A DNA stretch of 64,000 bases from Candidatus Zhuqueibacterota bacterium (GTDB lineage Bacteria; Zhuqueibacterota; Zhuqueibacteria; Thermofontimicrobiales; Thiofontviventaceae), in assembly GCA_036351795.1 (NCBI GenBank), contig JAZBPW010000020.1:1418-65417 (forward strand), written 5' to 3'. The translations under genes were made by a program, and so were the position numbers. The notes under the pieces were generated by a model. The model was not told the origin of the DNA. It was given only the letters and a program-made list of their open reading frames with translations, and did not search any database. The number at the start of each line of letters is the position of its first letter. The stretch's first letter is position 1. Shown piece after piece: positions 20-25,080 of this stretch.

Positions 20-3000
20 TCAATGAAGGATATTCTTGGTTTTTAATGTTTCGACCACTGCTCTGTACACATACGGATTGACCTGATATCCTGTTTCTTT
101 TTGTACCAGAATTCCCATGTTCAACAATCGGTTGAAAAGCAGCATGCTGTGCTGCGCGTCGCAATGAAACAAGGTACTGTGTTCGTTTGCGCAAAGTGTT
201 TCGTGTTGAAGAAAAATGGCCAATGTGTATAGCTCCTCTTGTGGAATCTGATGCATGAAAGAATAATTAAAATCTATATCCGCGTCGATAAATATTGTAT
301 CTGATTCCATTTTTATGATCGCACTCAACCAATATACCATAGCGGCGGATATATTTCCAGATGCCAGGGCGCCAAGCCTCACAAAGAAATATGTTTTCAG
401 GTAATTTTGCCGGTCATCTTCGGTGTCAAGTTTTTTATATTTCCTGGATTTCTTTATCTCATCACTTGCCTCAAACTGGAGTCTGTATCCGCTTATCCGA
501 TGTCTTTTCAAGATGATGTCTTCAATTTCTTCCGGCCGGAACGCCCCCAATTCAATAGTACCAAACATATATTTGGAAATCTGCATCACCCTGTCCAGAT
601 ATCGCCAGCTATACAACGTGCAGGTAAGTATCCAGTAAATCTTATTTTTGGTACGTGAAACCAGCAGCAGGAATTCTTCGAGTATCCTGAATCCACCAAC
701 CCTGCGGAGGAACATGTTCTGAATATCCTCGACAATGATGAATCTTTTTTGATCCTGGGAAAGGATGTGCTCTTCGAACTCATGAAGATTTTTCCACCCT
801 GAATTTTCAAATGCCTGATTGATTTTTTCGATCAGGATATCTTCAGAATGATGAATCATGCCGGATAATTCTATGCGATGGGCTGTATAACCATGGAATA
901 CATTTTTATGTGCAAAATTGAGAAGAGTGGTTCGTCCACTCCCCTTTTCACCAATAATGGAAATGACACCATACTTCCCTTCGCGCCATGAAACAAACTG
1001 ATCTTTGAGAAATTCCATTTCAACGGTGCGTCCATCAAACAGTCGTTCATCGGTGATTGGTTCTATCTTAAAAAGCCTCTGATACACATATGGCAGCTTT
1101 TCTATGCGCTTTGGAATATCACTGACCAGATTTGACAGCCGAATCTGACCCTCGCTTGTCTTTGATTCAAGTCCCAACCTCTTGATGATACTGCTATAGA
1201 AACCCCTGCCCCTCGAGAGGATCCGGTTACCTGCCTTAAGAACAGCAGGAACAGTCAATTTAAACGCGTTCACGATTTTTTGGGCGTAACTCCGTATTTC
1301 CTCTCTTGCCTTTAACTTTGCAATATGAAGCTTGAGTTCAATTATTTTCTCGTTGTTCGCAAGACCATTCAGGTCATCTATCAGATCCTGAGACATTTCT
1401 ACCAGATTCTCTTCTATCACATTAGAAAGCGCCTCTGTCTTCTTAACGAGATCCTCAATCTGCTTCTGAACCAGATCAAATCCTTGAACAATAACCGATT
1501 TAGCAGAAATCAAAACATTCTCTTCTGTGCGGTCTTCAAAAATATTCAGCGCCGATACCAGATTGTAATCGATGATGTAATCCAGTTCTGATATCTGTCT
1601 CAGAATTTCATCTATACTCTGTTTATTATTCTGGTAAAACGCATCGAAACTTACTTCCAGATCCTCAAGATACTCTTCTTGAACTATATCCTTAAATTCG
1701 ACCCGGGATGTTTTAAATTCAGGGAGTGTTGGACGCAAGTCCAGTTCGTTGAAAATGATGTGTTCATCGGACAAAGCATCGGTGGCAAATTTGATCCGGG
1801 ATAGATAATTTTCCAGAGATTTTTCGATCTGAACCTGCGCGATCCTGTCCATCAGCTCTGGCAGTATCTGCCTCCTGAATTTTCGAAACGTTAAACGGTT
1901 CTCTTGAGCTACAAGATTTTTCAAGGTCTCTTCATCATTCACTTCTTCTGCAAGTATTGTTTCTCTGGCATTCGCGATCATCTTCCCGGGTTCATCAAAA
2001 TAATCGAGGACTACTGTATGAACTCTTTTTCTTAGCGGATTGATCGTCTCATACAATATTTTTGAGATTCGAACCTCCAGAAGTATCAACTCCAAATCTT
2101 TCTGTAAATCTTCTTTTTGGCCTTCGAAGAAATCCTCCCACCGAGTTGCAGCACTTTTTATTTTATCACTGAGTTCCCGATGTTTGCAGGCGATCTTCCG
2201 GCTGGAATACTTACGATTGGATAATACGAACGAACCTGAATGCGCGAAAAGCGACAAAGCCCTATCGTAGATCTCTGACAACGCATCCTCAAAGTCCTGA
2301 TCAGGAAGTGAATTGACTCCAATATCCGCTTCAATGTTCACATTATCAAATATCGTGGAGGACGTATCCAGCTGTGCCGATTTGAATGTCAGACACGCTT
2401 CAAAGAGTTTTCCGAATTCTGCGAATCTTTTTGCCACATTGTTCAACTGAACATTATAAGTTTCGAATAACAGTTGTGACACCGGTATTTGATAGTGATA
2501 GGTCAAGAATGATGTTAACGCAACTTTTCGTCCAGGTGTCTGCAGGGATTGTACAGATTTTCCGAATAATTTATAGATGGATTGTTTCAAGTGATGCAGG
2601 CGTCTGGTTAAACCGCATTCTTTTCGTTTCAACAATTTCCATATCCGCACCCTGAAACCATCATCGTTGTTGCTGTCGAAATAGTCCTCTGCGTATTTGA
2701 CGTGAATACTTCCAGGCAGATCGGCTGTCAACATGTCAAAAGTCTGTTCCCATTCTTTACAACACTCGATCATTTTGACAGGTAATATCTCATCTGTCCA
2801 GGCGATCAATTCTTCAACACTCTTCTCCAAATCAGGAATATCGTTCTGTTGACCGGCTTTTCTTATTTTTCCCGTTTTTTCCTGATAATCCGAGAATATA
2901 TTTTGAAAATGATCTACAACGCTTGAATGTATTGCGACCGCCTGACGTCGTGCGTCATTTTGATATCGATACAGGATATCTGAGATATCGATATTCATAC

Positions 3001-3094
3001 CTTTTGGCTCCCCATCATCATAATTTTCCCACCGATCATGAGAAAACGACCTTATGTTTCGATTCGTCTGATCGAGTTTATAAACTGGAATCAC
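20..3094 (-). CDS. Large coiled-coil protein with a C-terminal P-loop NTPase (AAA/ORC-like) domain. The Walker A is deviant, GEKGSGRTT (Arg where Lys is expected), and the Walker B is FIIVEDIQ. The start codon appears to be GTG.
   Basis: 1024-aa ORF. The N-terminal ~650 aa are E/K/L-rich heptad-like (coiled coil). Residues ~690-900 contain 'IIGEKGSGRTTLL' and 'FIIVEDIQNMF'. The C-terminal ~120 aa look like a winged helix. An in-frame TAA lies just upstream of the GTG at 3092-3094. Confidence 0.6.
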   Translation of the reverse strand: MIPVYKLDQTNRNIRSFSHDRWENYDDGEPKGMNIDISDILYRYQNDARRQAVAIHSSVVDHFQNIFSDYQEKTGKIRKAGQQNDIPDLEKSVEELIAWTDEILPVKMIECCKEWEQTFDMLTADLPGSIHVKYAEDYFDSNNDDGFRVRIWKLLKRKECGLTRRLHHLKQSIYKLFGKSVQSLQTPGRKVALTSFLTYHYQIPVSQLLFETYNVQLNNVAKRFAEFGKLFEACLTFKSAQLDTSSTIFDNVNIEADIGVNSLPDQDFEDALSEIYDRALSLFAHSGSFVLSNRKYSSRKIACKHRELSDKIKSAATRWEDFFEGQKEDLQKDLELILLEVRISKILYETINPLRKRVHTVVLDYFDEPGKMIANARETILAEEVNDEETLKNLVAQENRLTFRKFRRQILPELMDRIAQVQIEKSLENYLSRIKFATDALSDEHIIFNELDLRPTLPEFKTSRVEFKDIVQEEYLEDLEVSFDAFYQNNKQSIDEILRQISELDYIIDYNLVSALNIFEDRTEENVLISAKSVIVQGFDLVQKQIEDLVKKTEALSNVIEENLVEMSQDLIDDLNGLANNEKIIELKLHIAKLKAREEIRSYAQKIVNAFKLTVPAVLKAGNRILSRGRGFYSSIIKRLGLESKTSEGQIRLSNLVSDIPKRIEKLPYVYQRLFKIEPITDERLFDGRTVEMEFLKDQFVSWREGKYGVISIIGEKGSGRTTLLNFAHKNVFHGYTAHRIELSGMIHHSEDILIEKINQAFENSGWKNLHEFEEHILSQDQKRFIIVEDIQNMFLRRVGGFRILEEFLLLVSRTKNKIYWILTCTLYSWRYLDRVMQISKYMFGTIELGAFRPEEIEDIILKRHRISGYRLQFEASDEIKKSRKYKKLDTEDDRQNYLKTYFFVRLGALASGNISAAMVYWLSAIIKMESDTIFIDADIDFNYSFMHQIPQEELYTLAIFLQHETLCANEHSTLFHCDAQHSMLLFNRLLNMGILVQKETGYQVNPYVYRAVVETLKTKNILH

Positions 3095-3245: not shown

Positions 3246-4709
3246 TTACAGCTTCGGATGAATGATCACATCGATGCGGCGGTTTTTTGCGCGACCCTCT
3301 CTGGTCTCATTATTCGCAATGGGCTTGCTTTCGCCAAAACCGACGGACTGAATTCTGGATCCAACCACGCTCATATTCGCCTGAATATACTGGCTGACCG
3401 CATCTGCGCGCGCCTGTGAAAGCTTCATGTTCTGCTGATCACCACCATGGGAGTCGGTATGACCTTCGATGGTGAGTGTGCATTCGGGAAACATGGCTAT
3501 CGCTTCTTTGAGTTTCGCCAGCAGCTCGAAATTCTCCGCTTCGATAATCGACTTGCCAACAGGAAATGTCAATCCGATGAGGCGAACGATAATATCATCG
3601 CCCTTGCGCAACACATTGGCCTGATCCTTGGTGAACAGCTTCTCCAGATTCATGAATTTTTCACGGATCTTTGCCTGTGCTTCGATCTGTTTCGATAGTT
3701 CCGATTTCTCTTTTTCAATACCACCCAGCTTCTCTTCGAGCTCGGATATACGTGAACTCAGTAGCGTCACCTGCCGGTCTCTTTCCGAAAGATCCTGTTC
3801 CAGTGAAGCTGCCTTCTCCTGCAGCGCTGTTATATTGGAAACGATCTCATCGGTGGTTACGTCAAAACCGGTATCAAATGATCCGACGATATCGAATGTT
3901 TCAGCGATCCTGTTCAGAGGTTTTTCTGTGGAAAGGATGTAGTCCTCCAGCATATCCTCGTCATCTCTGATCTCTTTTATTCGATCCGCCAGATATAGCG
4001 CGTGTTTGGTCTCATACTTCGCCTGACGCGACAGGGATAGTGCGACATCTGTGTCATACCGGTTTTCGTTGAGCTCCTTTTCCGCCTTCGTGACAAGCTC
4101 GTTCGCTTTTTGCAGGGTTTTCGGAGCATATTTCTTTACATTCCTGTCATCAGCCTCTTTCAGCAGAGTCCATGTTTCCTTCAGATAGTTCGCCTTGATC
4201 GCTTCGAGTTCAGCCTGGCGAAACAGTGTTTCGGCCTCTCCTGATTTCTTTTTAGCGTTCTTGGTGTCGCCATCCTCAGACTCGCGCGCGGCATCATTGA
4301 AGATCTCGTCTGCTTTGAGCCACAGCTTTTGAGCGAACTCAGGTGCTCCTGCCTCTTTTGCATCGGTGCGTGCCTTGATCGAATTCGACAATGCCACTGT
4401 GGACAATTTTGTTGCCTCGAGAGCAATTTTAACATGGTTGACGCAACCGTTCAATTTCTTTCGGATGTCTTCAAGATTCTTCCCTTTCTCGAAGTCTTCT
4501 TCCGCGTCACGGTAATAATCGAATGCCTTTGAAAAACTTTTCGGCGCCAGAAGATCGGCATTCGCATCTCTGGCCTCATTCAACGCCTCGCTCGCTTCTT
4601 TGAACAGAGACGTCTTGATATCCTGTTGAGAAGATGCTGCCGTGAACCCACCAATCAGAACAGATATCAACAGACATCCCAGTACCGCAATCGTCTTTCT
4701 TTCTCGCAT
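3246..4709 (-). CDS. OmpA/MotB-family protein: signal peptide, long periplasmic coiled-coil region and a C-terminal OmpA-like peptidoglycan-binding domain.
   Basis: N-terminus 'MRERKTIAVLGCLLISVLIGGFTAASS' (signal peptide). C-terminus '...TIEGHTDSHGGDQQNMKLSQARADAV...NRRIDVII' (OmpA C-terminal motif). Confidence 0.8.
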   Translation of the reverse strand: MRERKTIAVLGCLLISVLIGGFTAASSQQDIKTSLFKEASEALNEARDANADLLAPKSFSKAFDYYRDAEEDFEKGKNLEDIRKKLNGCVNHVKIALEATKLSTVALSNSIKARTDAKEAGAPEFAQKLWLKADEIFNDAARESEDGDTKNAKKKSGEAETLFRQAELEAIKANYLKETWTLLKEADDRNVKKYAPKTLQKANELVTKAEKELNENRYDTDVALSLSRQAKYETKHALYLADRIKEIRDDEDMLEDYILSTEKPLNRIAETFDIVGSFDTGFDVTTDEIVSNITALQEKAASLEQDLSERDRQVTLLSSRISELEEKLGGIEKEKSELSKQIEAQAKIREKFMNLEKLFTKDQANVLRKGDDIIVRLIGLTFPVGKSIIEAENFELLAKLKEAIAMFPECTLTIEGHTDSHGGDQQNMKLSQARADAVSQYIQANMSVVGSRIQSVGFGESKPIANNETREGRAKNRRIDVIIHPKL

Positions 4710-4784
4710 GAAATCCTCCTTGTTTAAGTTCAGAAAAACGGTTTATATAGATTTATTTACGTTCATGCTTCGACCATTTACAGA

Positions 4785-5744
4785 TCAGTGTCGCGCGAAA
4801 ATGAATATCACATACAGGAAATAGATCACAAGGAACACATATCCGTTCCACTTTTCAATCCTGTGCCGCCCACCCAGATAAATAAAACAGAACAGCATGA
4901 TACTCGCCAGAATGACAAAGCCAATATCGAAATTGCTCGATGTGCTGAAAGGCATTGGACGAATCATCGCGCTTGTTCCGAGCACGAGAAATATATTGAA
5001 TATATTTGATCCGACAATCGTTCCCATGGCTATTTCAGGCTTTTTCCGGTAAGCAGCCATTAATGCCGTTACCAGTTCCGGTAACGATGTACCAAAAGCG
5101 ACCACCGAAAGGCCGATATTCGTCTCATTCACACCCAGTTTCATCGCGAGAAATACGGCACCGTCGATGACCCATTTTGCCCCCAGCGTTAATCCGACCA
5201 ATCCCGAAAGTAACAGTAGCATCGATTTAATCAGTCCATAGTCACCGTGAGTGGAATGATCATTAAACCCATTCGCCTTTTTCGCGATCGAAAAATAGTA
5301 ATACATGAAACGCAGAAATGACAGAAACAGGATCATACCATCACTGCGGCTCAATATCGATGCTGGCGCTTTGTCTATCAATGTATCATTGACCAAAATC
5401 CCCAGAATCACAGCGGCAAATACACTGATAGGGATTTCCCTGCGTACGGTACCCGGAGGTATGGTGATGGGAATAATGATCGCCGCGGCACCGAGCACCA
5501 GAAAAATATTGGCAATATTGCTTCCCAGTACCGTACCAAACGCGATTTCGGAACTTCCCTTAATACTGGCCAGCACATTGATGAAGAGTTCAGGTGCAGA
5601 TGTACCGAGCGCAATAATCGTCAATCCAACCACAATTTCCGAGATGTTCAATTTCTGAGCAATGGAGGAGCCGCCTTTTACGACCCAGTCCGCTCCTTTA
5701 AATATGAAGAAAAAGCCGACAAGAAGAAAAATAGTTGTTAGCAT
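4785..5744 (-). CDS. yrbG: CaCA-family cation/Ca2+ antiporter (YrbG-like Na+/Ca2+ exchanger).
   Basis: Two alpha-repeats, 'GTSAPELFINVLA' and 'GTSLPELVTALMAA', in a 319-aa polytopic membrane protein. Confidence 0.85.
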   Translation of the reverse strand: MLTTIFLLVGFFFIFKGADWVVKGGSSIAQKLNISEIVVGLTIIALGTSAPELFINVLASIKGSSEIAFGTVLGSNIANIFLVLGAAAIIIPITIPPGTVRREIPISVFAAVILGILVNDTLIDKAPASILSRSDGMILFLSFLRFMYYYFSIAKKANGFNDHSTHGDYGLIKSMLLLLSGLVGLTLGAKWVIDGAVFLAMKLGVNETNIGLSVVAFGTSLPELVTALMAAYRKKPEIAMGTIVGSNIFNIFLVLGTSAMIRPMPFSTSSNFDIGFVILASIMLFCFIYLGGRHRIEKWNGYVFLVIYFLYVIFIFARH

Positions 5745-5754
5745 GGATGCAATA

Positions 5755-5803
5755 CCTGTGAAGAAAAAAGTGATGCCGCTGTTCGACGTTTTCGAACGGC
5801 GGC
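5755..5803 (-). terminator. Probable intrinsic terminator of the CydA-like/cytochrome c gene.
   Basis: A 12-bp stem with one G-U pair (gccgctgttcga / tcgaacggcggc), followed on the minus strand by 'atcacttttttcttca', 40-90 nt after the stop at 5846. Confidence 0.4.
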
Positions 5804-5845
5804 ATTACTAATTATAGCAAAAATTATGCTAAAATGCAATAATTT

Positions 5846-8500
5846 TCAATGGACAGGATTTCGCATAACACGCATCATATTCTCGTGATGGATTGGATCT
5901 TCCATTTTGATGATATGACATGCCTCGCATTTCATGTTCGCCCCGATCGGATAGGGGTGTCCGGTATATTGAAGGGGCTGGATATTGTCATGCAGCGGAC
6001 TGTACGCATTACTGGCCGGATATTCCGCATGCGTCGACCCGTGACACGCGGGACAGCGTATACCGGCATTGTCCGTGCGAATACGGTACAATTCTTCCGG
6101 ACCCTCTGTCCATTGATTGTATCCCGATGCGCCGGGTTCAGGTTTCTCGAAATCTACGTGACAATTGAGGCAATCCGGCTCCTTGAGCCACGGTATTCTC
6201 GGATTGATCTCATCCACGGATTCCACCTGCTTAGAGGTCAAATTTGCCATCAGCCTCTTCGCCGACGGTTTCGCCTCCTCTCCCCGTAGCAGACCGAGCG
6301 CGTGCTCCTGAAGCGTCCCGTGACAATCGATGCATGTGACATCCACCTTGCTGTGAATACCGCGGGCGCATCTCGTGTTTCCTTTCAGATTGGCGGGATG
6401 GCACATGGCGCAGGCTGCGGCGCCGTCAAACACCATATAGTTTGCGTGCCAGCCATGCATAGCCGCTGAAAAATTCAGCACATCCGGTTTTCCCTCGGCG
6501 CCGACAGCCGGATCCGCATGGCATTCCTGACACAGCCTGGGCTTGCCATCTTCCGCCTGAGCGAGCAGATCGGTTCCATTGATCCTGTCGTGAACTTCCA
6601 GAATACGTATCGCAGTCTCATCGGTCATGCCGGAAACACCTTTCCATCGCCACTCGCCGCCGTGACAATTCCGACATCCGAATTCGGTGGACACAGGCGC
6701 CACCACTCTGGTACTCGCCAGGATCTCTCCGCTTTCCGCATCTTTCGCTTCGATGGTGAATGCGGGGAATGGATTGTATGCACCCTCATCCGGATATGGG
6801 ACGACAGGAATCATCTTTGCGATGAAACCACCCAGATCATCCTCCCAGACCATATCACCGTTCATTCCCAATCCGCCCAGACCGACATTCTCTTCCAGCT
6901 GCACACCGAATGTAAGTTTGCTGTATTTCCAGAAATCGACATGCGCCGAAGGATTCTCAAAGCCCTTTTGCACGGCATAGCTGAGCTGGACTCCATCTGA
7001 CACGATCTCGGGAACCGGTCCGCGCTTGATCAGCTGCGCCTCAATCGTGTTGGCAGGCGGCAGGATCACGAACCATGCATCCGCATCAGAAAGGCAATGC
7101 ATACCCAGATCGTTCCATGCGAGCAGGAGATATTGATCCTTTTTCTTGTTGTACGCCGGAATATCAACATCCTCCCACGGGTGCAGTGCATATGGTTCCG
7201 GCTCTTCTAAAATGGCATTGTCGTTGAGTTCAGTAACAATGTAGGATGCCAGGGCCTTTCTTTCAGCCGCAGTTCCCATAAATGGCGGCATATAAGTCAT
7301 GACTTTTCCCTGGCCGTCCAACAGCGCCATGATTCCCATGTAGGGATATTCCACGGTTCTGGCGACAATATCATTCCGGATGCCGTTGACCGTATGACAG
7401 CTGAGGCACTGTAGATTGAACAGCTCCCTGCCGGCTTCGACTTGATTTTCCGGCGTGATCGCTTTCACGGCTGACCACCTGGCATGGGTCAACACACCCT
7501 CTGTGTCCAATAAGCTGACATCTGACTGTTTGACTGACGTGGAATACATGAACTGATTGATCACATACGGCTTTCGTGCGATTTCACGAAGATATTCAAA
7601 ACCACCCATCCACAGCAATCCAATAATCACGAGTACAAAAGTGACCGCTTTTTGTACAGATGGTCTCGATTTGACCGAAAAATATATACCAGCCAGAAAG
7701 ATCAAAACAGATGCCACGAATAGTATGATGACAAAAGGCCCGGTCTGCGGATTGAGTGAAAAAGCGGTCTGCCGGATATCCGCCGGAACTGCGAAATAGT
7801 ACCAGATTCCGAACAAGACCACTCCAGCCATGGGATATAGAAGCCATTTGCTGCAATATTTTAACATCTGGTCTCTGAAATCTCCGGTTTTCAAAAATAC
7901 GACCGTGACATAGCCGAAAAGTCCGGCGATCATCGCCGCGACACTCGACCGGAAAAACAGTGACGGGAAATAGGTGGGATTGAAAAAACCATCCCAGAAA
8001 TTCTGCGTCTTCAACCACTGTCCGGGGGTAAGCATGAAACTCAGAATACCATTGATGATCACGAGGCTCAGCCACGCGAAGAGGAAGTACAGAAACGCGA
8101 TGAGAAGACGGTTCTTTCGTCCAAGTTTATCAAACTGATAGTGATAAACGAGCAGTGCTGTGATTTCACCAAGAAAGAACACCCACTCAATCGCCCAGCC
8201 GAAGACAAACGCGTGGATCAGGCTGGATGTTGCCGCCGGTTGTACGAGTGCGATGATGAACCAGATACCGACGCCTGTGAGTCCGCCGAATACCATTGTC
8301 AGTAGAAGAAAAAACCAGGTATGCTTGCGTACGTAATCATGAATTGCTGGATTATTATCCCGGAATCCCTTGAGATCAGTCAGCCAGAGAAATGCACCGC
8401 CACCGACAGCGAGGTGTGAGATATAGACGTGCAAAACAGAAATCAGTGCGATCAGGCTGCCGCCCCCGAACGTAGTTATTTCCCAGATTGGATAATTCAT
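5846..8500 (-). CDS. Fusion protein. The N-terminal polytopic domain is homologous to cytochrome bd quinol oxidase subunit I (CydA). The C-terminal ~520 aa is a periplasmic octahaem c-type cytochrome.
   Basis: CydA-like segments: 'AFVFGWAIEWVFFLGE...YHYQFDKLGRKNRLL...WLSLVIINGILSFMLTPGQW' (compare E. coli CydA 'ESTFVGLFFFGWDRLGK...LSALWILVANGWMQNP'). Eight CxxCH motifs: CLSCH, CRNCH, CQECH, CAMCH, CIDCH, CLNCH, CPACH, CEACH. A strong SD (aaggagg) precedes the start, and the ATGA overlaps the upstream gene's stop. Confidence 0.75.
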   Translation of the reverse strand: MNYPIWEITTFGGGSLIALISVLHVYISHLAVGGGAFLWLTDLKGFRDNNPAIHDYVRKHTWFFLLLTMVFGGLTGVGIWFIIALVQPAATSSLIHAFVFGWAIEWVFFLGEITALLVYHYQFDKLGRKNRLLIAFLYFLFAWLSLVIINGILSFMLTPGQWLKTQNFWDGFFNPTYFPSLFFRSSVAAMIAGLFGYVTVVFLKTGDFRDQMLKYCSKWLLYPMAGVVLFGIWYYFAVPADIRQTAFSLNPQTGPFVIILFVASVLIFLAGIYFSVKSRPSVQKAVTFVLVIIGLLWMGGFEYLREIARKPYVINQFMYSTSVKQSDVSLLDTEGVLTHARWSAVKAITPENQVEAGRELFNLQCLSCHTVNGIRNDIVARTVEYPYMGIMALLDGQGKVMTYMPPFMGTAAERKALASYIVTELNDNAILEEPEPYALHPWEDVDIPAYNKKKDQYLLLAWNDLGMHCLSDADAWFVILPPANTIEAQLIKRGPVPEIVSDGVQLSYAVQKGFENPSAHVDFWKYSKLTFGVQLEENVGLGGLGMNGDMVWEDDLGGFIAKMIPVVPYPDEGAYNPFPAFTIEAKDAESGEILASTRVVAPVSTEFGCRNCHGGEWRWKGVSGMTDETAIRILEVHDRINGTDLLAQAEDGKPRLCQECHADPAVGAEGKPDVLNFSAAMHGWHANYMVFDGAAACAMCHPANLKGNTRCARGIHSKVDVTCIDCHGTLQEHALGLLRGEEAKPSAKRLMANLTSKQVESVDEINPRIPWLKEPDCLNCHVDFEKPEPGASGYNQWTEGPEELYRIRTDNAGIRCPACHGSTHAEYPASNAYSPLHDNIQPLQYTGHPYPIGANMKCEACHIIKMEDPIHHENMMRVMRNPVH

Positions 8501-9579
8501 CAGACAGTCCTCCTTTCCGCGACCTGGTTTGCGATTTTAAGCATAATCCACACAGAGACCAGTCCGATGGCGAACACGATAAAGAAGAGTGCCATCACAC
8601 CATATTGAGGCGATAGCTGTAGATCATTGAGACTGAAGACATCGCTCAGATACAATGAGCGAAGGTTGGCTCGCGTGATCACCATTGCGGCGACAACAGC
8701 AACAAGATGAATTACCGAAGGTATCAACTTGCCCAGGAATGCGGAAATGATCGCTCCGATTGCCAGTAAAATACCCGCAAACAGCACAATCGTATAGAAC
8801 AAGTTTCGCCCCATGAATGCCAGGATAAAATCAGAAGGTATCGCCAGAAGAAACCAGAATCCGATGACAACCTGGACACAGGTGGCAATCGCGAATATTT
8901 TTAATCCGCTATTAATCTTGTCCTCCATTCCTTTCGTCCCTCTCCTGTCACGAATGTACCAGACAATTGACATCAGCATTCCTGCCACTGCCACTGATGC
9001 GACGATGAAGTGAAGGTAGCGCGGCAAAAATGTAGCGTCACTTACGTTGAGTATTGTGCCACTTCGGTTGGTAAAATAGGCCGACCACTTTTCCGGCTGT
9101 ACCATCAGCGTCATGTTATTCGTGAATACAAATGCGATGTAGAGCACGATTGCGCTCATTGCGAGGAGCGAGGCCATAGACAGCGTTTTCGATGCGCTGT
9201 ACTTTTTAACATGAATATAAGCAGCGTAATACGCGATAATGAGAAGCGGAATAATCGATATCCAGAACACCGCCATGAAGATAGAACTCGAATAGATGAA
9301 ATGTCCGTATAGAACCTGAACAAACAGCAAAGGAGCCACTCCGAAATTGATGGCGAGAGCGAAAGTGGTTGGAATTTTTCCCGCAATGGTACCATTCATC
9401 GACTGGTCCAAAGTTTCATCTTTTCGGGTCAATCTTGAGAAGAGCATGATCAGGCTGCCGCCAATCACCACATTGACGAACAGAATATGGATCATGAACG
9501 TGAAAATGTTCAACACCTGAAATAGCCAGGCCGGAGCCGGTATCGTATCAGGTGCAGGAATCAGTGATGTTGGGTCCAT
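8500..9579 (-). CDS. Short CydA-like (cytochrome bd subunit I family) membrane protein, translationally coupled to the downstream CydA-octahaem fusion.
   Basis: 'FTFMIHILFVNVVIGGSLIML' aligns with the CydA haem b558 His region 'ALTAMYHFLFVPLTLG'. It is a 359-aa protein with ~8 TM helices. Its stop overlaps the next start (ATGA). Confidence 0.6.
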   Translation of the reverse strand: MDPTSLIPAPDTIPAPAWLFQVLNIFTFMIHILFVNVVIGGSLIMLFSRLTRKDETLDQSMNGTIAGKIPTTFALAINFGVAPLLFVQVLYGHFIYSSSIFMAVFWISIIPLLIIAYYAAYIHVKKYSASKTLSMASLLAMSAIVLYIAFVFTNNMTLMVQPEKWSAYFTNRSGTILNVSDATFLPRYLHFIVASVAVAGMLMSIVWYIRDRRGTKGMEDKINSGLKIFAIATCVQVVIGFWFLLAIPSDFILAFMGRNLFYTIVLFAGILLAIGAIISAFLGKLIPSVIHLVAVVAAMVITRANLRSLYLSDVFSLNDLQLSPQYGVMALFFIVFAIGLVSVWIMLKIANQVAERRTV

Positions 9580-9624
9580 AATGAACTCCTTTTCATGAAT
9601 AAATTGATGAGCTCTTGTTCTGTT

Positions 9625-10098
9625 CTAGTTCGTTTTTTCCGTGACTCGGCTGTACATATCTCTGAATGATGCATGATTTCTCTTCAACAAAATGATTGAA
9701 AGCACGAAAATGAAAATAAGTGCGCCAAGGATTCCGATCTCTATCATGTGATATTTGAATTTATCCAGCATATAGGCGCTCTCGACACTGATGACCAGTA
9801 TTCGTCTCACAGCGGCGATCATGGCAACGACAAGAAATGGCTCTGCACAAAGAGCATGGGATTGAATCGAGACACGTACCGTATAGAGTATCTCGACAAC
9901 CATGATCGTGAGCAGTATCCGGTCGATCACATGCAGCGCAGCCTTGATATAATCTCCGTCTCGGAATTCCATGACCAGAGTCTGCATTGCCGTGAAAAGC
10001 AGGAACAGCCCCGTCAGTATCAGTAAAATACCCACAATGCCGTAAATGACATCTTCACTCGATTTGAATATCTTATCCAGCAATTCCAGAGATTTCAT
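9625..10098 (-). CDS. psiE: PsiE-family (phosphate-starvation-inducible E) membrane protein.
   Basis: 157 aa with 4 TM helices, and overall resemblance to PsiE ('...LHVIDRILLTIMVVEI...'). Confidence 0.65.
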   Translation of the reverse strand: MKSLELLDKIFKSSEDVIYGIVGILLILTGLFLLFTAMQTLVMEFRDGDYIKAALHVIDRILLTIMVVEILYTVRVSIQSHALCAEPFLVVAMIAAVRRILVISVESAYMLDKFKYHMIEIGILGALIFIFVLSIILLKRNHASFRDMYSRVTEKTN

Positions 10099-10143
10099 AA
10101 ATCAAACCTCATGCCTGGGTTCCTAGAAAGTTGTCTGATTCCG

Positions 10144-10968
10144 TTACAATTTCGTACCACAATGCCTGCAAAAGCCGGCATCAGCTTCATGATCCACGGC
10201 CTTGCATTGGGAACACTGCTTCTTGTTCTGTTGCCGCTCAAATGTTCGCGTCATCTCTACGGTGACGAACCCAGTCGGGACGACAATGATACTGTAACCC
10301 AGTATCATGATAATCGCGGCCACTGTTTGTCCGAAATTCGTTTTTGGAGAGAGATCTCCATACCCCACGGTTGTCAATGTGACGATTGCCCAGTAAATGC
10401 TTCTGGGGATACTCGTAAATCCCCGTTCTGGGCCCTCCACCACGTAAAGCACGCTGCCGAGTATGACAACGAGTGTGAAAACGGTCAACAAAAAGACTAC
10501 AATTTTCCGGCGGCTGGCCCGCAATGCAATGCCGAGCATCTTCGCCTCTTTAACGTACTGTTCAAACTCAAATATCTGGAATATTCGCAGCAGTCGCACA
10601 ATGCGGATCACCATGAAAAAGTGACTGCCCGGCAGGAAAAGGCTCAGATATGTTGGGATCACCGCTAGCAGATCCACGACACCGAAAAAGCTCCCGGCAT
10701 ATTTCCTTTGGCTGTTGACACATATCAACCGCAACAGGTACTCAATCGTAAAAAGTATTGTGAACAGCCACTCAAGGATGGACAAAATCCCGCCATACTT
10801 CTGTTGTATCGATCCGACACTGTCGAGCATAACCACAATAACGCTCATCAGTATGACGACCAAAAGCATGATGTCAAACAATTTACCGGCCGATGTGTCT
10901 GCCTCGAATATCACCCGATAAAGTGTTGCCCGCCATCTCGTCTTCGGTTGTTGGCTATCTGAATTCAT
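10144..10968 (-). CDS. Voltage-gated K+ channel (6TM Kv-like) with a C-terminal zinc-ribbon tail.
   Basis: Selectivity filter 'TLTTVGYGD'. S4-like Arg repeats 'VIRIVRLLRIFQIFE'. C-terminal 'CSQC...CRHCGTKL'. Confidence 0.85.
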   Translation of the reverse strand: MNSDSQQPKTRWRATLYRVIFEADTSAGKLFDIMLLVVILMSVIVVMLDSVGSIQQKYGGILSILEWLFTILFTIEYLLRLICVNSQRKYAGSFFGVVDLLAVIPTYLSLFLPGSHFFMVIRIVRLLRIFQIFEFEQYVKEAKMLGIALRASRRKIVVFLLTVFTLVVILGSVLYVVEGPERGFTSIPRSIYWAIVTLTTVGYGDLSPKTNFGQTVAAIIMILGYSIIVVPTGFVTVEMTRTFERQQNKKQCSQCKAVDHEADAGFCRHCGTKL

Positions 10969-10977
10969 TTTTTCTCG

Positions 10978-13104
10978 CTATACCGGTTTTCCAAGCAGCA
11001 GCACAGTGCTCCTCGGATTTACCTGGTAATAATATTTGGGATAGATCGCTGCCTCTTTTCCCCGATCGAGGAAATCTCTGCCGCTCGGCAGGCTCGTATC
11101 AACAACTCTGTGCCATACGTTACGATCATGCCGGGGTACTTCGATCAGATGGGCTGCGTCATCAGAATTGTATATCATGAACAGCAGATAGTCGGAATCA
11201 GTTGACGAAATCTCACTGCCGTCAAGTTGAAAACAGATGAATTTAAGTTTTGCATCGTTCCATGCGGGACTTTTCAGATCATTTGCATACCAGGTGATAT
11301 CCGGTACTCTGTCGCCATTGGTGTCCTTACCCGTGAAAAACCGCTTTCTTCTCACTATCGGATAATCTTTACGGAACCGGATCGCCTTCCTGCAGAATGT
11401 GAACATTTCTCTGTTTTTGTAGAGCAGATTCCAATCGAACCAGCTGATCTCATTGTCCTGACAGTATGCATTATTATTGCCCTGTTGCGTCCTCATGAAT
11501 TCATCGCCACCCAGCATCATCGACGTTCCAGAGGAGAAAAACAACAGGCAAAAGGCGTTTTTCATCATCTGCCTGCGCAAGTGAAGTATATTCTTTAAAG
11601 AGACATCTCCCTCTACACCGCAATTCCACGAATAGTTTTCGTTCGCGCCATCTCTATTATCTTCAAGATTTGCTTCGTTATGCTTGGTATTATAGGAATA
11701 GAGATCGTATAATGTAAATCCGTCATGGGCTGTGATGAAATTGATACTGTTGTAAGGCGATCTGTTATCGTTTCCATAGAGGTCAGACGATCCTGTGATA
11801 CGGTAAGCCACCTGATTGACCTGTCCGTCATCACCCCTGAGGAATTTTCTTGCTGTGTCGCGGAATTTATCATTCCACTCAGACCATGCTTCCGGAAAAT
11901 TTCCGACCTGATACGTAGTCAAATCCCACGGTTCGGCGATTAATTTGATATCTTTGAAAACCGGATCTGATTTGATCATTCTGAAAAACTTCGCATTCCG
12001 GTCGAACTTGTTCCGCAACCGGCCGAGAACCGTGGCCAAATCGAATCTGAATCCATCGACATGCATCTCCTCCACCCAGTAGTGCAATGAATCGATGATC
12101 ATCCTCCTTGCCACCGGATTATCCGCCTTGACGGTATTCCCACATCCGGAGGCGTTATGATAGGGCACAATGGATTGTCCGCCTTTCTTTTCCATCCTGT
12201 AATAGGTCAGATTATCGATCCCCTTGAAACAGATCGACGGCCCCCACTCATTACCCTCACCGGTATGGTTGTAAACGACATCGAGGATCACTTCGATGCC
12301 CGCTTTATGCAATTCCCTGACCAGAGTTTTGAATTCATTGACCTGGCAGCCGGGACAGGAACCGCTGCTGTATGATGACTCCGGCATGAAGAATCCGATC
12401 GTGTTGTAACCCCAGTAGTCTCTCAATCCTTTCGATCGCAGGATATCATTTGTATGTGATTCATGAACAGGCAGCAGCTCCACCGCGTTGATTCCCAACT
12501 GTTTCAGGTGTGGTATTTTTTCAACAAAGCCGGTATATGTTCCAGGATTTTTAACCCCCGAAGACGGATGCGCGGTAAAGCCCTTCACATGGGTTTCATA
12601 AATAATGAGTTCTTCAATCGGTATATGCGGTCTTTGATCATGCTGCCAATCGAAATCATCGGTCATGACAATCGATTTGGGTACAATCATCGAATTGTCT
12701 CTGTTATCTTTTCTGTGTACTTCGCCGTCGTAAGGAGTCAGTAAATTGTCAGTATTGATGAATTTACCGGTCAACGCCTTCGCGTATGGATCCATCAAGA
12801 GTTTGTTTTCATTAAAATACAACCCGTGCCCGGGATCGTATTCGCCACAAAGCCTGTAGCCGTATAACTGACCGGGTCCGATGCCGTGTACAAAGGCATG
12901 CCAGACATGATTGTCCTGATACTTCAATTCGATGATGTCTGACGGAGCATCTTCAGGTGCAGGAAAAAGGAGCAGGAAAACCTGGGTTGCTTTCCTGGAG
13001 TAAATGGCAAAATTCACGCCATCGTCTTGTACGGACGCGCCCAGCGGACAATTCGCTCCACTGGACAAGCGCTTGCTTGTTCGATGCTCGAGCTTAATTT
13101 TCAT
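10978..13104 (-). CDS. glgX: Glycogen debranching enzyme GlgX (GH13 isoamylase-type).
   Basis: 708 aa. N-terminal CBM48-like region ('GASVQDDGVNFAIYSRKAT'), GH13 catalytic motifs ('GFRFDLA', 'EPWD'), and overall GlgX architecture. Confidence 0.9.
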   Translation of the reverse strand: MKIKLEHRTSKRLSSGANCPLGASVQDDGVNFAIYSRKATQVFLLLFPAPEDAPSDIIELKYQDNHVWHAFVHGIGPGQLYGYRLCGEYDPGHGLYFNENKLLMDPYAKALTGKFINTDNLLTPYDGEVHRKDNRDNSMIVPKSIVMTDDFDWQHDQRPHIPIEELIIYETHVKGFTAHPSSGVKNPGTYTGFVEKIPHLKQLGINAVELLPVHESHTNDILRSKGLRDYWGYNTIGFFMPESSYSSGSCPGCQVNEFKTLVRELHKAGIEVILDVVYNHTGEGNEWGPSICFKGIDNLTYYRMEKKGGQSIVPYHNASGCGNTVKADNPVARRMIIDSLHYWVEEMHVDGFRFDLATVLGRLRNKFDRNAKFFRMIKSDPVFKDIKLIAEPWDLTTYQVGNFPEAWSEWNDKFRDTARKFLRGDDGQVNQVAYRITGSSDLYGNDNRSPYNSINFITAHDGFTLYDLYSYNTKHNEANLEDNRDGANENYSWNCGVEGDVSLKNILHLRRQMMKNAFCLLFFSSGTSMMLGGDEFMRTQQGNNNAYCQDNEISWFDWNLLYKNREMFTFCRKAIRFRKDYPIVRRKRFFTGKDTNGDRVPDITWYANDLKSPAWNDAKLKFICFQLDGSEISSTDSDYLLFMIYNSDDAAHLIEVPRHDRNVWHRVVDTSLPSGRDFLDRGKEAAIYPKYYYQVNPRSTVLLLGKPV

Positions 13105-13194: not shown

Positions 13195-13569
13195 CTATGC
13201 CTTCCACAACCCATGAAGGTTGCAATATTCTCTGGCAGATAGTTTTTCAGCGGTCACTTCGAATGTCGCTTCCGGCGCGTCACCCGGATTCAGGAATTTT
13301 CTGTAAACCGTCCCATCCGCAATGAGTTCAATGAATTCGATATAGTGTTTTTCCTCCATTGGATGAGCCACACTACCCACCTTTACAGTCACGGTAGATC
13401 CCGACTGCTCAATAACCGGCACATGTTTTTCCGTAGCCGCGTCCGTGGTATTTTCATTCAGGAGTGTCATATCCTGACCACAACAGACGAGTGTACCACC
13501 ACCCGCGTGAACCACTTCCACCATGTTCCCGCAGACTTCACATTTATAGATTTGATTAAGTTGTGTCAT
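13195..13569 (-). CDS. dfx: Desulfoferrodoxin (2Fe superoxide reductase).
   Basis: N-terminal desulforedoxin Cys cluster '[22 protein letters not shown]', plus a C-terminal SOR domain with 'HVPV' and 'CNLHGLW'. Confidence 0.9.
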
Positions 13570-13584
13570 TTCAACCTCCTGGAC

Positions 13585-14124
13585 TTAAAATTTCTTGAAT
13601 TTGGTGCTGGGCACGTTGCAGACCGGACAATTTTCCGGGGGATCGCCAATGTGAGTAAATCCGCACACAGGGCAAATATAGACCTCATTTATCTCAATGT
13701 CCTTTCCCTTCACGGCTTCCTTTTTCGCGTTCGCGTACATCTCCGCATGGATCTTTTCCGCCTCAACCGCGTAAAGGATGGACTTTTCTGCGCCCTCCTC
13801 GCCCTGGAGCGTAGCAATCGCGTCATACGCCGGGTACATCTCCTCAACTTCGAATGTTTCACCATCAATACCGGTCTGAAGATTGTCTACCGTTTTCTTG
13901 ATGTAGCCCAGATTCCTCGCATGGTTGGTTGCGTGAACCTGTTCGGCGTAGGCAATCGCCTTCCACAGCCGTGCCAGATTCGGGAAACCCTCTCTCTCGG
14001 CAACATCACTGAAAATAAGATATTTCATATGAGCCTGTGATTCACCGGCAAATGCATCCTGCAAAGCATTCTCTGTCATTTTTCTCATTGTAACTCTCCT
14101 GTGTTTATAATTTTTTAAATACAA
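13585..14124 (-). CDS. rbr: Rubrerythrin.
   Basis: Di-iron ferritin-like domain (ExxH motifs) plus a C-terminal rubredoxin-like 'CPVCGF...CPVC'. Confidence 0.9.
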   Translation of the reverse strand: MYLKNYKHRRVTMRKMTENALQDAFAGESQAHMKYLIFSDVAEREGFPNLARLWKAIAYAEQVHATNHARNLGYIKKTVDNLQTGIDGETFEVEEMYPAYDAIATLQGEEGAEKSILYAVEAEKIHAEMYANAKKEAVKGKDIEINEVYICPVCGFTHIGDPPENCPVCNVPSTKFKKF

Positions 14125-14170
14125 TTGTCCCTGTAAACGTCAATAGCACCACATAGAAAAATATTTATCA

Positions 14171-14683
14171 CTATTCCTCTGACGCTGGAGGAGTGAAACT
14201 GCGCTGAGCCAGCTCTCTGTCGATCATGAGGATGCCATGACCCTTCTCACCAACCATTCGAATCTTCTTGAGGATGGCTAGCATACCTGCCTCCTCTTCA
14301 ACCTGTTCATCGATGTACCAGTGGAGAAAACTCTGTGTGGCGTAGTCATTCTCTTCCTTCGCCAAAGCCATCAGATCATTGATGAGCTTGGTAACTTTCT
14401 GCTCGTGTTTCCAGGCATCATCAAAGACCTCCTCGAGTGACTTGTAGTCGATCTTCGGCTGATCGAGTCCATAAATTTTCACATCATGATTCTGCTCGAC
14501 CAAATAATGATAGAATTTCATCGCATGAAATCTTTCCTCTTGTTCCTGAATGACAAAAAAGTTCGCCATTCCGTCCATGTCGACCGATGAACAATACGCT
14601 GCCATTGCCAGGTACAGATGTCCTGAATACAACTCATTTTTAATTTGCTCGTTAATCATAGCTGCCATTTTGTCAGATATCAT
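14171..14683 (-). CDS. ftn: Ferritin (non-haem, bacterial Ftn).
   Basis: 'INEQIKNELYSGHLYLAMAAYC...EQEERFHAMKFYHY' (ferroxidase centre). Confidence 0.85.
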   Translation of the reverse strand: MISDKMAAMINEQIKNELYSGHLYLAMAAYCSSVDMDGMANFFVIQEQEERFHAMKFYHYLVEQNHDVKIYGLDQPKIDYKSLEEVFDDAWKHEQKVTKLINDLMALAKEENDYATQSFLHWYIDEQVEEEAGMLAILKKIRMVGEKGHGILMIDRELAQRSFTPPASEE

Positions 14684-16350: not shown

Positions 16351-16358
16351 CCCTCGAA

Positions 16359-16949
16359 TTATTGAATTTGTACAATTCCTGAAAAACCGATGAACGCCAT
16401 CGCCATGATGCCAGTAATAATGAGAACAATGCCGGGTCCTCTCAGGGCCGGCGGAATTTTCTTCTCATTCATGCGCTGGCGGATACCTGCCATCGCCAGG
16501 ATGGCCAACAGCCACCCCAGTCCGCTCCCGGCTCCGAACATGACACTTTGAATGAAATTATACTGCCTGATCACCATGAACAACGACACGCCCAGTATCG
16601 CACAATTGACAGTGATCAAAGGAAGAAAAATGCCCAGATTGATGTACAATACCTCTGAAAATCGTTCGATGACCATCTCCAACAGCTGAACCGCGGAGGC
16701 AATAATAATAATGAATGCAATGAAACGCAAGTACTCCAATCCCAACGGTTCCAGCACATAGAAGAAGACGATGTAGTTCAGCGCCGATGTAACCGTCAAT
16801 ACAAATGTGACTGCCAGCCCCAGACCGAGCGATGTCTTCACCTGTTTGGAAACGGACAGGAATGAACACATCCCCAGAAAATAGACAAGCAGAATATTGC
16901 CTGTGAAGATTGACGCAAAAAATATGACCCAGGGGGAAAGATTTTCCAT
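16359..16949 (-). CDS. nqrE: Na+-NQR subunit E.
   Basis: 196-aa, 6TM NqrE/RnfA-family protein, 'FLGMCSFLSVSK'. Confidence 0.9.
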   Translation of the reverse strand: MENLSPWVIFFASIFTGNILLVYFLGMCSFLSVSKQVKTSLGLGLAVTFVLTVTSALNYIVFFYVLEPLGLEYLRFIAFIIIIASAVQLLEMVIERFSEVLYINLGIFLPLITVNCAILGVSLFMVIRQYNFIQSVMFGAGSGLGWLLAILAMAGIRQRMNEKKIPPALRGPGIVLIITGIMAMAFIGFSGIVQIQ

Positions 16950-16964
16950 CCTGTAAATCTCCTT

Positions 16965-17606: not shown

Positions 17607-17608
17607 AT

Positions 17609-18361: not shown

Positions 18362-18372
18362 CAGACTTTTTT

Positions 18373-25017: not shown

Positions 25018-25080
25018 CCTGAAAATCCCTTGTTGTTATTTCACTAAAAGGAAAAAATCAATAATAAATTTTGATTGAAA

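Follow-up and report, generated by a model that had tools for sequence, protein, structure and literature searches.

The locus described here lies in a 64,000-nucleotide stretch of DNA from Candidatus Zhuqueibacterota bacterium, a member of the KSB1 phylum (the window), and raises the question of what a CydA-like membrane protein does when it is fused to a multihaem cytochrome c and encoded beside a second CydA-like protein. An earlier note had proposed a quinol:cytochrome c or extracellular electron transfer (EET) module and not a canonical O2 reductase. In our analysis the two proteins, here called B and A in the order of their genes, are the OR-C1a/OR-C1b pair of the OR-C1 architecture named by Murali, Gennis and Hemp (2021), who regarded it as a putative cytochrome c-dependent O2 reductase. 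The architecture is not new.

Gene layout and domain architecture

The two co-directional ORFs recognized in the earlier note are both on the minus strand (Table 1). The four-nucleotide ATGA overlap assigned to their junction is not present; the junction reads TGATG, and the stop codon of gene B and the start codon of gene A share a single base. Translational coupling is still plausible, since a strong AGGAGG sequence lies upstream of the ATG of gene A. Neither cydB nor cydX follows, as had been stated, and the next gene downstream of A encodes a Na/Ca exchanger. A scan of positions 4600-11200 for promoters and terminators gave no interpretable operon boundary.

Table 1. Positions of the gene pair, its junction, the domains of A and the adjoining gene
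Feature	Position	Strand	Description
PsiE-family membrane protein gene	9625..10098	(-)	PF06146, E 7.6e-10; 45 bp upstream of B
Gene B	8500..9579	(-)	OR-C1b-type subunit, 359 aa, MEE4310435.1; public annotation 'hypothetical protein'
RBS of gene A, AGGAGG	8509..8514	(-)	Within the 3' end of gene B, 8 nt before the ATG; read from sequence
B stop/A start overlap, TGATG	8498-8502	(-)	One shared base
Gene A	5846..8500 (stop codon included)	(-)	OR-C1a-type subunit, 884 aa, MEE4310434.1; annotated 'c-type cytochrome'
Membrane domain of A, aa 1-310	7571..8500	(-)	Eight TM helices, CydA fold, no Q-loop
Class I monohaem cytochrome c domain of A, aa 345-425	7226..7468	(-)	PF13442, E 2.6e-8 on the excised segment
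Haem-free beta-rich domain of A, aa ~440-605	6686..7183	(-)	Conserved W-N-D-L-G-M-H-C; no family assignment
Seven-haem c-type domain of A, aa 606-884	5849..6685	(-)	Seven CxxCH; Pfam Cytochrom_c3_2, Cytochrome_C7, MtrC/MtrF domain II/IV

The AF2 model of A (pLDDT 82.4, pTM 0.80) showed eight long helices within aa 13-308, with a CydA-type fold in which TM1-4 form the four-helix bundle that carries the oxygen-reduction site. The positive-inside rule gave an N-out/C-out topology and placed the CxxCH-containing part in the periplasm, as had been assumed. The Pfam match of A to PF01654 reached 22.8 bits, below the gathering score of 26.2; with H186 and M393 absent and no CydB-family gene nearby, A was rejected as a canonical cytochrome bd subunit I (qOR).

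The eight CxxCH motifs counted in the earlier note were found exactly, at residues 365, 609, 657, 697, 723, 777, 816 and 858, and all of them are invariant among 175 full-length homologs. The fusion to a periplasmic eight-haem domain was borne out as well, with eight CxxCH motifs in proteins of ~885 aa in 178 of 194 homologs. The first motif (C365-x-x-C368-H369) belongs to the monohaem domain placed directly after TM8, for which a PDB profile search gave weak cytochrome c6 matches. M404, kept in 175/175 sequences, is likely the sixth ligand of this haem. The seven-haem domain contains seven additional, strictly conserved histidines (H637, H682, H685, H716, H824, H871 and H872), and together with M404 they are consistent with one His/Met haem and seven bis-His haems in A. 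Its match to MtrC/MtrF domain II/IV (PF22113) scored 31-33 bits (33.4 against a cut-off of 30 in Pfam), and the NCBIfam matches to NrfH, NrfB and DmsE were weak. An assignment of A to the MtrC/OmcA-type cytochromes, stand-alone outer-membrane lipoproteins with two beta-barrel plus pentahaem modules and an MtrAB-type porin partner, was discarded: the PF22113 match is at the domain level only, the matching domain is part of an inner-membrane protein, and the conserved neighbours include no porin-cytochrome gene.

B contains no CxxCH motif and was modelled with nine TM helices in an N-out/C-in topology. It had been described as truncated, but in the model none of the nine TM helices of the bd-subunit fold is missing, and only the Q-loop is absent. 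Its alignment to CydA, also proposed in the earlier note, holds for the His motif (H31) and does not extend to the glutamates at E99 and E107 or to a direct CydA match. Searches of Pfam, NCBIfam and PDB profiles returned no significant match for B, and its kinship with CydA was visible only through its fold and through profile-profile comparison with A, where the two proteins appeared as paralogs (hhalign 95.6%). A BLASTP comparison of B with the N-terminal part of A was marginal (E 0.013), and nothing informative came from hhalign of the B family against E. coli CydA or CydB as single sequences. B is a CydA paralog without a Q-loop, standing in for CydB.

Conserved residues in the membrane domains

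Alignment of A with CydA gave the equivalents H24 (H19), E105 (E99), E112 (E107), S145 (S140) and N150 (N148), with F183 where CydA has the haem b558 ligand H186. In Geobacillus CydA the residues H21, E101, E108, Y115 and Y117 align with H24, E105, E112, Y119 and Y121. We found H24, E105, E112, Y119, Y121, S145, E302, R305, E306, R309 and P311 to be invariant or nearly so (186-190 of 194 aligned homologs, nearly all the remaining sequences having a gap at these positions). H29 and H96 of A are also invariant and have no CydA counterpart. A quinol site was not found in A: there is no Q-loop (the TM6-TM7 loop has ~15 residues), no H186 and no Met aligned with M325 or M393.

E306 of A, which lies in the invariant motif E-Y-L-R-E-I-A-R-K-P-Y, fell on E378 of Geobacillus CydA (E. 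coli E445) when A 254-321 was aligned with residues 325-393 of that protein. The pairing of E306, R309 and P311 with E445, R448 and P450 was the second-best local match of A to E. coli CydA, with weak scores (domain i-E-value 9.6 on its own; hhalign E 0.096). We tentatively take E306 and R309 as the equivalents of E445 and R448. In B, H31 occupies the position of His19 and H190 that of H186, and M299 is invariant; B may thus keep the His19 and His186 equivalents plus an invariant Met, an assignment that is likewise tentative. M256 of B was set aside as an M393 equivalent, being conserved in only 166/186 sequences. Among the ligands that the earlier note had singled out, A has His19 and tentatively Glu445 and lacks His186 and Met393, and B tentatively has the His19 and His186 equivalents.

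These residues allow a reading in which OR-C1 is more than a cytochrome bd that has exchanged quinol for cytochrome c. Both subunits would carry b-type haems, A having a full di-haem oxygen site that includes E306 and B using H31, H190 and M299. We consider this unlikely, though deserving of some weight. The complex would then contain four or five b/d haems and eight c haems, and electrons could enter from two sides, from the quinone pool via B and from periplasmic cytochromes via A, or the complex could operate in either direction. Anaerobes of many phyla would, on this reading, possess a respiratory hub of a new kind.

Correspondence to OR-C1, and distribution

The OR-C1a reference WP_151150981.1 (Supplementary Table 6 of Murali et al. 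2021) has H24, E105, E112, Y119, Y121, S145 and F183 at the same numbering as A. A also shares with OR-C1a the H19/E99/E107 equivalents, the 6-residue Glu-Glu spacing, the Y-x-Y motif, eight TM helices, the C-terminal periplasmic haem-c extension (up to eight CxxCH in OR-C1) and the absence of a quinol site. B, like OR-C1b, is a CydA paralog without quinol site, Q-loop or proton-channel glutamates whose gene adjoins that of OR-C1a. Supplementary Table 3 of the same study lists OR-C in KSB1 and Calditrichota.

Several details differ from the published description. A has R131 where the reference has a poorly conserved H131, and our alignments suggest an E445 equivalent (E306) that is absent from the listing of Murali et al. 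B has no CxxCH, whereas the OR-C1b sequences compared from Supplementary Table 7 have one or two, and its model has nine TM helices where eight were reported. The H19- and H186-type histidines and the invariant Met suggested for B were not tabulated. Murali et al. highlighted the eight-haem form in Desulfovibrionia; here it was seen in more than 10 phyla, with hosts that are mostly anaerobes.

The pair resembles canonical CydAB(X) (qOR1-3; PDB 5DOQ/5IR6, 6RKO) in both subunit folds, the active-site haem ligands, the proton-channel glutamates and the pseudo-symmetric heterodimer, and the 6-residue spacing and Y-x-Y motif of A are those of the Geobacillus (qOR3) type. Unlike canonical subunit I, A lacks the Q-loop and the haem b558 ligands, scores below the Pfam threshold and has a 575-aa periplasmic c-haem domain in place of TM9 of CydA; CydX is missing here, and in place of the haem-free CydB there is a CydA paralog with conserved His and Met residues. 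The archaeal CydAA' (qOR4a/qOR4b) likewise consists of two CydA paralogs without CydB, its 'b' subunit keeping the H19 equivalent without the proton-channel glutamates; however, subunit I of CydAA' retains the quinol site and haem b558, c-type haems are lacking, and the family is archaeal only. Comparable, too, are the membrane b-cytochromes of anaerobes that are fused to multihaem c domains, such as Geobacter CbcL, and the MtrC-type decahaem cytochromes: here as well an integral membrane haem protein is joined to a periplasmic multihaem wire, and A has the MtrC/MtrF Pfam match. The membrane part of CbcL is a HydC/FdnI-type dihaem cytochrome b and not of the bd fold, and MtrC sits in the outer membrane as a lipoprotein that works with MtrAB. 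Partners of the MtrAB type are neither present nor conserved here.

Databases contain more than 3700 relatives of A, the best 120 of which are nearly all full-length (~885 aa), and a phmmer search of 1.84 billion representatives of 50%-identity clusters detected 782 (E<=1e-3). Full-length identity to the Desulfovibrionales and Halodesulfovibrio proteins at three of the surveyed loci was 41-44%. Of 72 related loci, which span more than 10 phyla, 65 have B directly upstream of A. No other gene near A was conserved across phyla in the 72 loci, the remaining clusters being lineage-specific or of generic content such as histidine kinases and ABC ATPases. In cultured strains the B-A pair forms a two-gene unit by itself. 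The PsiE-like gene is immediately upstream of the pair in six of the seven FCB-group loci that carry one and further away in the seventh (L025), and most other loci have no such gene; it is a possible operon partner whose membership in the system is uncertain. In six Thermodesulfovibrio loci the pair is followed by an ODP oxygen-binding di-iron sensor and an MCP. The window contains desulfoferrodoxin, rubrerythrin and ferritin genes 3.6-5 kb upstream of the pair, and also Na+-NQR and succinate dehydrogenase genes, which imply a quinone pool. As evidence for O2, these neighbourhoods are circumstantial and specific to certain lineages.

Proposed function and its alternatives

Since the residues of the O2 site and the proton channel (the H19, E99, E107 and S140 equivalents and, tentatively, those of E445 and R448) are invariant in ~190 homologs, and since what A lacks is the quinol side (Q-loop, H186, M393), the suggestion of the earlier note that the pair is a quinol:cytochrome c or EET module instead of a canonical O2 reductase found no support. 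In our judgement A and B probably form a two-subunit, haem-only membrane oxidoreductase of the cytochrome bd superfamily that acts as a cytochrome c-fed oxygen reductase. The analysis shows the gene structure, fold, topology, residue conservation and conserved pairing; the haem occupancy, the direction of electron flow, O2 as the substrate and the identity of the donor we infer, as follows. TM1-4 and TM8 of A would carry the ligands of two active-site haems (H24, E105 and probably E306), and E105, E112 and S145 would line a proton channel facing the cytoplasm. A has lost the Q-loop and the b558 ligands and carries instead, right behind TM8, a periplasmic cytochrome c domain of probable His/Met type, then a beta-sandwich and the seven c-haems of probable bis-His type. 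Donors in the periplasm, for example a pool of low-potential cytochrome c, would feed electrons into the seven-haem wire, from which they would pass through the higher-potential His/Met haem c to the membrane di-haem site, where O2 would be reduced to water with protons drawn from the cytoplasm. The outcome would be removal of O2 and a contribution to the proton-motive force. Because the hosts are mostly anaerobes, O2 reduction would have a protective or micro-oxic role and not that of primary respiration.

Seven bis-His haems, predicted to be of low potential, together with an MtrC-like Pfam match would also suit outward electron flow, and this counts against the oxidase reading. A and B would in that case oxidise (mena)quinol and send electrons through the c-haems to acceptors in the periplasm or outside the cell, serving as a quinol:cytochrome c or EET entry module. 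The cytochrome c3/c7 and weak NrfH/DmsE matches, H190 of B at the b558 ligand position, the quinone pool implied by genes in the window and the mainly anaerobic hosts all fit such a module, yet neither subunit has a Q-loop, A is without H186 and M393, and the genes conserved near the pair in the loci surveyed include neither an outer-membrane porin-cytochrome nor any other EET gene. The invariant equivalents of E99, E107 and S140 (with E445 tentative) make sense only for a buried, proton-consuming catalytic haem site, and a membrane-proximal His/Met c-haem normally has a higher potential than bis-His haems, which favours inward flow. We therefore think it improbable that quinol is the donor.

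Equally little weight falls to inward flow in the same architecture towards H2O2, NO, peroxynitrite or chlorite, which would make the pair a detoxifying reductase instead of an enzyme that conserves energy by reducing O2. Peroxidase/catalase-like and NO-handling side activities are known from canonical cytochrome bd, the pair is present in strict anaerobes, desulfoferrodoxin, rubrerythrin and ferritin are encoded nearby, and the invariant H29 and H96 of A could alter the chemistry. However, the conserved ligands and proton-channel residues belong to an O2-reducing site, the ODP sensor that adjoins the pair in Thermodesulfovibrio belongs to a family that takes its name from an oxygen-binding di-iron protein, and no sequence feature indicates a specific alternative substrate. 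An artefact, whether a frame error that fused separate genes for a cytochrome c and a membrane protein or membrane domains of the quinone-interacting NrfD/PsrC type, is hardly conceivable, since the single 884-aa frame with all eight motifs recurs in the 178 homologs from many phyla, the B-A pairing is itself conserved across phyla, and the Foldseek match to ActC reached only E 0.54. The NrfD/PsrC/ActC family was the best match neither by fold nor by HMM.

Our literature search found no paper on the purification or assay of any OR-C enzyme, and nothing specific came up for the locus tags of homologs in cultured strains or for multihaem or bd reports from KSB1. The locus opens no new category, the architecture having been described already in 2021. 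It neatly exemplifies a widespread respiratory family for which biochemical work was absent from the literature searched, and public records name the two proteins only 'c-type cytochrome' and 'hypothetical protein'. E306 in A and H31, H190 and M299 in B are targets for mutagenesis and structural work. If the proposed cytochrome c-fed oxygen reductase function holds, many supposed strict anaerobes, among them KSB1, Calditrichota, Ignavibacteria, sulfate reducers and Thermodesulfovibrio, could burn trace O2 with electrons from periplasmic cytochromes, bypassing quinones.

The gene pair and its assignment to OR-C1

The earlier note had described a bd-like gene pair with a c-haem fusion. This overall observation proved essentially correct, with three corrections: the junction of the genes, the copy called truncated, and the E99-type residues, which the smaller protein lacks. 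The smaller subunit (B) precedes the larger one (A), and the genes meet in TGATG, where the B stop and the A start have one base in common, rather than in the ATGA overlap that had been proposed; AGGAGG 8 nt 5' of the A ATG leaves tight translational coupling plausible. Exactly eight CxxCH motifs were found in A (residues 365, 609, 657, 697, 723, 777, 816 and 858) and none in the 359 residues of B. The exact sequences are on public record from an 89-kb contig of a candidate division KSB1 bacterium MAG, A as 'c-type cytochrome' (MEE4310434.1) and B as 'hypothetical protein V2J62_01085' (MEE4310435.1).

Pfam placed Cyt_bd_oxida_I over residues 17-214 of A at a sub-threshold score (22.8 bits, cut-off 26.2). 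When a profile of 41 A homologs was compared with the PDB, the best sequence was Geobacillus CydA (5DOQ_A, E 9.4e-4), with H24, E105, E112, Y119 and Y121 of A aligned with H21, E101, E108, Y115 and Y117. An AlphaFold model of A (pLDDT 82.4, pTM 0.80) searched with Foldseek gave bd subunits as all top 20 PDB matches and ActC only at E 0.54. The membrane domain is thus bd-type by both sequence profile and structure search, and a NrfD/PsrC fold, raised earlier as a possible refutation, was ruled out.

The two-gene architecture is the already described OR-C1, in which OR-C1b is the adjacent paralog of OR-C1a (Murali et al. 2021). The reference from Desulfovibrio senegalensis in their Supplementary Table 6 (WP_151150981.1) lists H24, E105, E112, S145, H131, Y119 and Y121, shows F183 in the H186 column and leaves the M393 and E445 columns empty. 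A carries H24, E105, E112, Y119, Y121, S145 and F183 at identical numbers and differs in having R131 in place of the poorly conserved H131. Supplementary Table 3 of the same paper already records OR-C for both KSB1 and Calditrichota, and the qOR/OR-C/OR-N scheme is cited as accepted in a 2026 cryo-EM study of E. coli bd. Our literature search found no biochemical work on OR-C. The locus belongs to this published family of putative enzymes.

Coordinates of the features discussed (in the window unless a related locus, L, is named; aa, residues of A)
Feature	Position	Strand	Remarks
Gene B	8500-9579	-	359 aa
Gene A	5846-8500	-	884 aa
A H24/H29	8413-8431	-	
A H96	8213-8215	-	
A class I cytochrome c domain	aa ~345-425		after TM8; Pfam PF13442, E 2.6e-8; invariant Y-M404-P motif
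A beta-sandwich domain	aa ~440-605; 6686-7183	-	confidently predicted; between monohaem and seven-haem parts
A seven-haem domain	aa 606-884		Pfam matches to cytochrome c3/c7 and MtrC domain II/IV models
PsiE-family (phosphate-starvation-inducible E) membrane protein gene	9625-10098	-	directly upstream of the pair
PsiE-family genes, related loci	L001 6424-6909; L004 6455-6934		
Desulfoferrodoxin	13195-13569	-	
Rubrerythrin	13585-14124	-	
Ferritin	14171-14683	-	
Nqr-type gene run (Na+-NQR-like)	15238-19383	-	
Succinate dehydrogenase/fumarate reductase	24307-26778		flavoprotein and Fe-S subunits
STAND/AAA-type NTPase and GlcD/GlpC-like genes	20-3094 and 37822-40923	- and +	given jointly
DsbD-type and DUF255 genes	29604-31418 and 19750-21834	+ and -	given jointly
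ODP/MCP/PAS-GGDEF-EAL cassette	L032 10703-15531	same as pair	
Short-form loci	L075 7935-10408; L078 8001-10620; L076 4967-9362		

Residues and domains of the two subunits

Among about 190 A homologs, mono- and di-haem forms included, H24, H29, W80, E105, E112, Y119, S145, T158, R184, E302, R305, E306, R309 and P311 were invariant or nearly so. The alignment with the PDB profile continued colinearly from A 254-321 onto Geobacillus CydA 325-393 and paired the A motif F-E-Y-L-R-E306-I-A-R-K-P-Y with A-G-W-Y-L-A-E378-V-G-R-Q-P-W, whose E378 corresponds to E445 of E. coli. The pairs E306-E445, R309-R448 and P311-P450 were the second-best local match (E 0.096) given by hhalign against E. coli CydA, and recurred in a global alignment together with S145-S140 and N150-N148. 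We tentatively propose E306 as the Glu445 equivalent. The loss from A is specifically that of the haem b558 site (H186 and M393) and the Q-loop. Two further histidines of the membrane domain, H29 (five residues past the equivalent of H19) and H96 (where TM3 begins), are invariant or nearly so; in E. coli CydA a valine, V24, occupies the H29 position, but H96 is matched by a histidine, H86.

The positive-inside rule was clear-cut for A (12 K/R in cytoplasmic loops, 2 in periplasmic ones), giving an N-out orientation and a periplasmic C-terminal c-haem domain. Its monohaem part fits a His/Met haem with M404 as the predicted ligand. No Pfam family matched the beta-sandwich domain, in which the motif W-N-D-L-G-M-H-C is nearly invariant (H468 in 146 and C469 in 165 of 175 sequences); possible roles of this domain are docking and the binding of a metal or cofactor. 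Seven extra histidines are strictly conserved in the seven-haem domain (H637, H682, H685, H716, H824, H871 and H872), enough in number for seven putative bis-His haems. The window also encodes a thiol:disulfide interchange protein of the DsbD type, which belongs to the reducing pathway of cytochrome c maturation, and a DUF255 protein with a thioredoxin domain; both fit active biogenesis of c-type cytochromes in the periplasm.

Searches of Pfam, NCBIfam and PDB profiles with B gave no match, and BLASTP against the A N-terminus was marginal (E 0.013). Compared profile to profile, the B family (186 sequences) and the A N-terminal family (194) matched at 95.6% probability and E 1.2e-8, with B 26-284 colinear on A 19-279. 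B is therefore not the truncated CydA it had been taken for; it is a complete bd-type subunit lacking only the Q-loop, and the functional counterpart of the 'missing' CydB. By the positive-inside rule, clear-cut here too (13 cytoplasmic K/R, 5 periplasmic), it is N-out with a cytoplasmic C-terminus. Of the 186 B sequences, 185 have H31, and the same number holds for H190, for M299 and for R303; R307 is kept in 183. The H19 position is taken by H24 in A and by H31 in B, and the H186 position by F183 in A and by H190 in B; where TM5 begins, B, A and E. coli CydA have a common [N/D]-P-x7-[H/F] spacing. H31 and H190 are tentative candidates for H19- and H186-type haem ligands. M256, in the loop replacing the Q-loop, was set aside as an M393 equivalent, being only 89% conserved. 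The E99-region motif attributed to B is absent: aromatic or aliphatic residues occupy the A E105 and E112 positions, and the published 'b'-type subunits likewise have no Glu there (Murali et al. 2021).

Distribution and pairing

More than 3700 relatives of A were present in the protein collection, and the best 120 were nearly all full-length (~885 aa, 57-68% identity). A genome scan gave 79 loci, in KSB1, Calditrichota, Zhuqueibacterota, Bacteroidales, Ignavibacteria, Kapabacteria, Gemmatimonadales, Verrucomicrobiota, Glassbacteria, Delongbacteria, Planctomycetaceae, Thermodesulfovibrio/Nitrospirota, Thermodesulfobacterium and several orders of Desulfobacterota. All eight CxxCH motifs were kept in 178 of 194 aligned homologs, which excludes a frame error as the origin of the fusion.

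In 65 of 72 loci the gene directly upstream of A encoded a B homolog, and most of the others end at a contig edge. No B homolog was found in the fetched regions of two loci with eight-haem A (L042, from the complete Desulfonema magnum genome, and L046), even by tblastn at E 10; in these genomes B may have been lost or may lie at another site. In L042 a 750-bp ORF-poor gap lies upstream of A. Comparison of neighbourhoods found no other gene conserved beside the pair across phyla, and in cultured strains, among them Halodesulfovibrio aestuarii (DSM 17919) and Thermodesulfobacterium hveragerdense (DSM 12571), the pair forms a two-gene unit by itself, with flanking genes on the opposite strand. 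Another cultured carrier is Pseudodesulfovibrio aespoeensis (Daes_0497).

Residues 1-340 of A, used as a phmmer query against 1.84 billion representatives of 50%-identity clusters, retrieved 782 proteins at E<=1e-3, of which 518 reached E<=1e-10 and 222 reached E<=1e-30. The best 150 of at least 400 aa had mostly one (50 proteins), two (19) or eight (17) CxxCH motifs, with single cases up to 11. Short-form relatives of 450-510 aa with one or two haems occur in MAGs of Chthonomonadales, Ignavibacteria and Vampirovibrionales. Two of three such loci (L075 and L078) have the order A then B; in the third, L076, two other genes separate the pair.

Proposed function and genomic context

On the best-supported reading of these sequences, A-B would be a bd-type oxygen reductase fed by cytochrome c. 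Electrons of low potential would enter the bis-His wire from the periplasm, pass to the His/Met haem c, sited where the Q-loop and b558 would be, and reach a di-haem site that A would hold in TM1-4 and TM8, where O2 would be reduced with cytoplasmic protons delivered through an E105/E112/S145 channel. The earlier interpretation was half right: a bd-superfamily enzyme rewired to c-type haems, with no cydB, was borne out, but the proposed quinol:cytochrome c or extracellular-electron-transfer role was not. We consider that role unlikely and favour inward over outward flow because the proton-channel and oxygen-site residues are invariant, because the features lost are those of the quinol side, and because the His/Met haem would lie nearest the membrane with the bis-His haems further out.

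The neighbourhoods lend circumstantial support to the oxygen-reductase reading. Six Thermodesulfovibrio/Nitrospiraceae loci (L032, L033, L037, L051, L077 and L079) have, after the pair and on its strand, genes for an oxygen-binding di-iron protein of the ODP family (PF19583, E 2e-74) and a soluble MCP signalling protein, and in five of the six also for a PAS-GGDEF-EAL protein; this cassette looks like an O2-sensing set beside a putative O2 reductase. In the window, an oxidative-stress cluster (desulfoferrodoxin, rubrerythrin and ferritin, 13195-14683) lies 3.6-5 kb upstream of the pair on the same strand. A role with another oxidant (H2O2, NO) is improbable.

The Nqr run comprises an NqrF-like Fer2/FAD/NAD protein, two Rnf-Nqr membrane subunits, an FMN-binding subunit and an NqrB/RnfD-like subunit, and together with the succinate dehydrogenase/fumarate reductase genes it indicates a quinone-based respiratory chain in the KSB1 host. 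A PsiE-family gene also lies directly upstream of the pair in six further loci (L001, L004, L010, L019, L021 and L061) and further off in a seventh (L025), from Calditrichia, Bacteroidota, Ignavibacteria and unclassified MAGs; it is not there in most loci of other phyla. Two more large genes of the window encode an NTPase of the STAND/AAA type (1024 aa) and a fusion of FAD-binding, 4Fe-4S and CCG domains (1033 aa; GlcD/GlpC-like oxidoreductase).

With the architecture already published, the locus still offers two things: leads at the level of single residues (E306 of subunit A; H31, H190 and M299 of subunit B) and the wide spread of the eight-haem form among anaerobic phyla.
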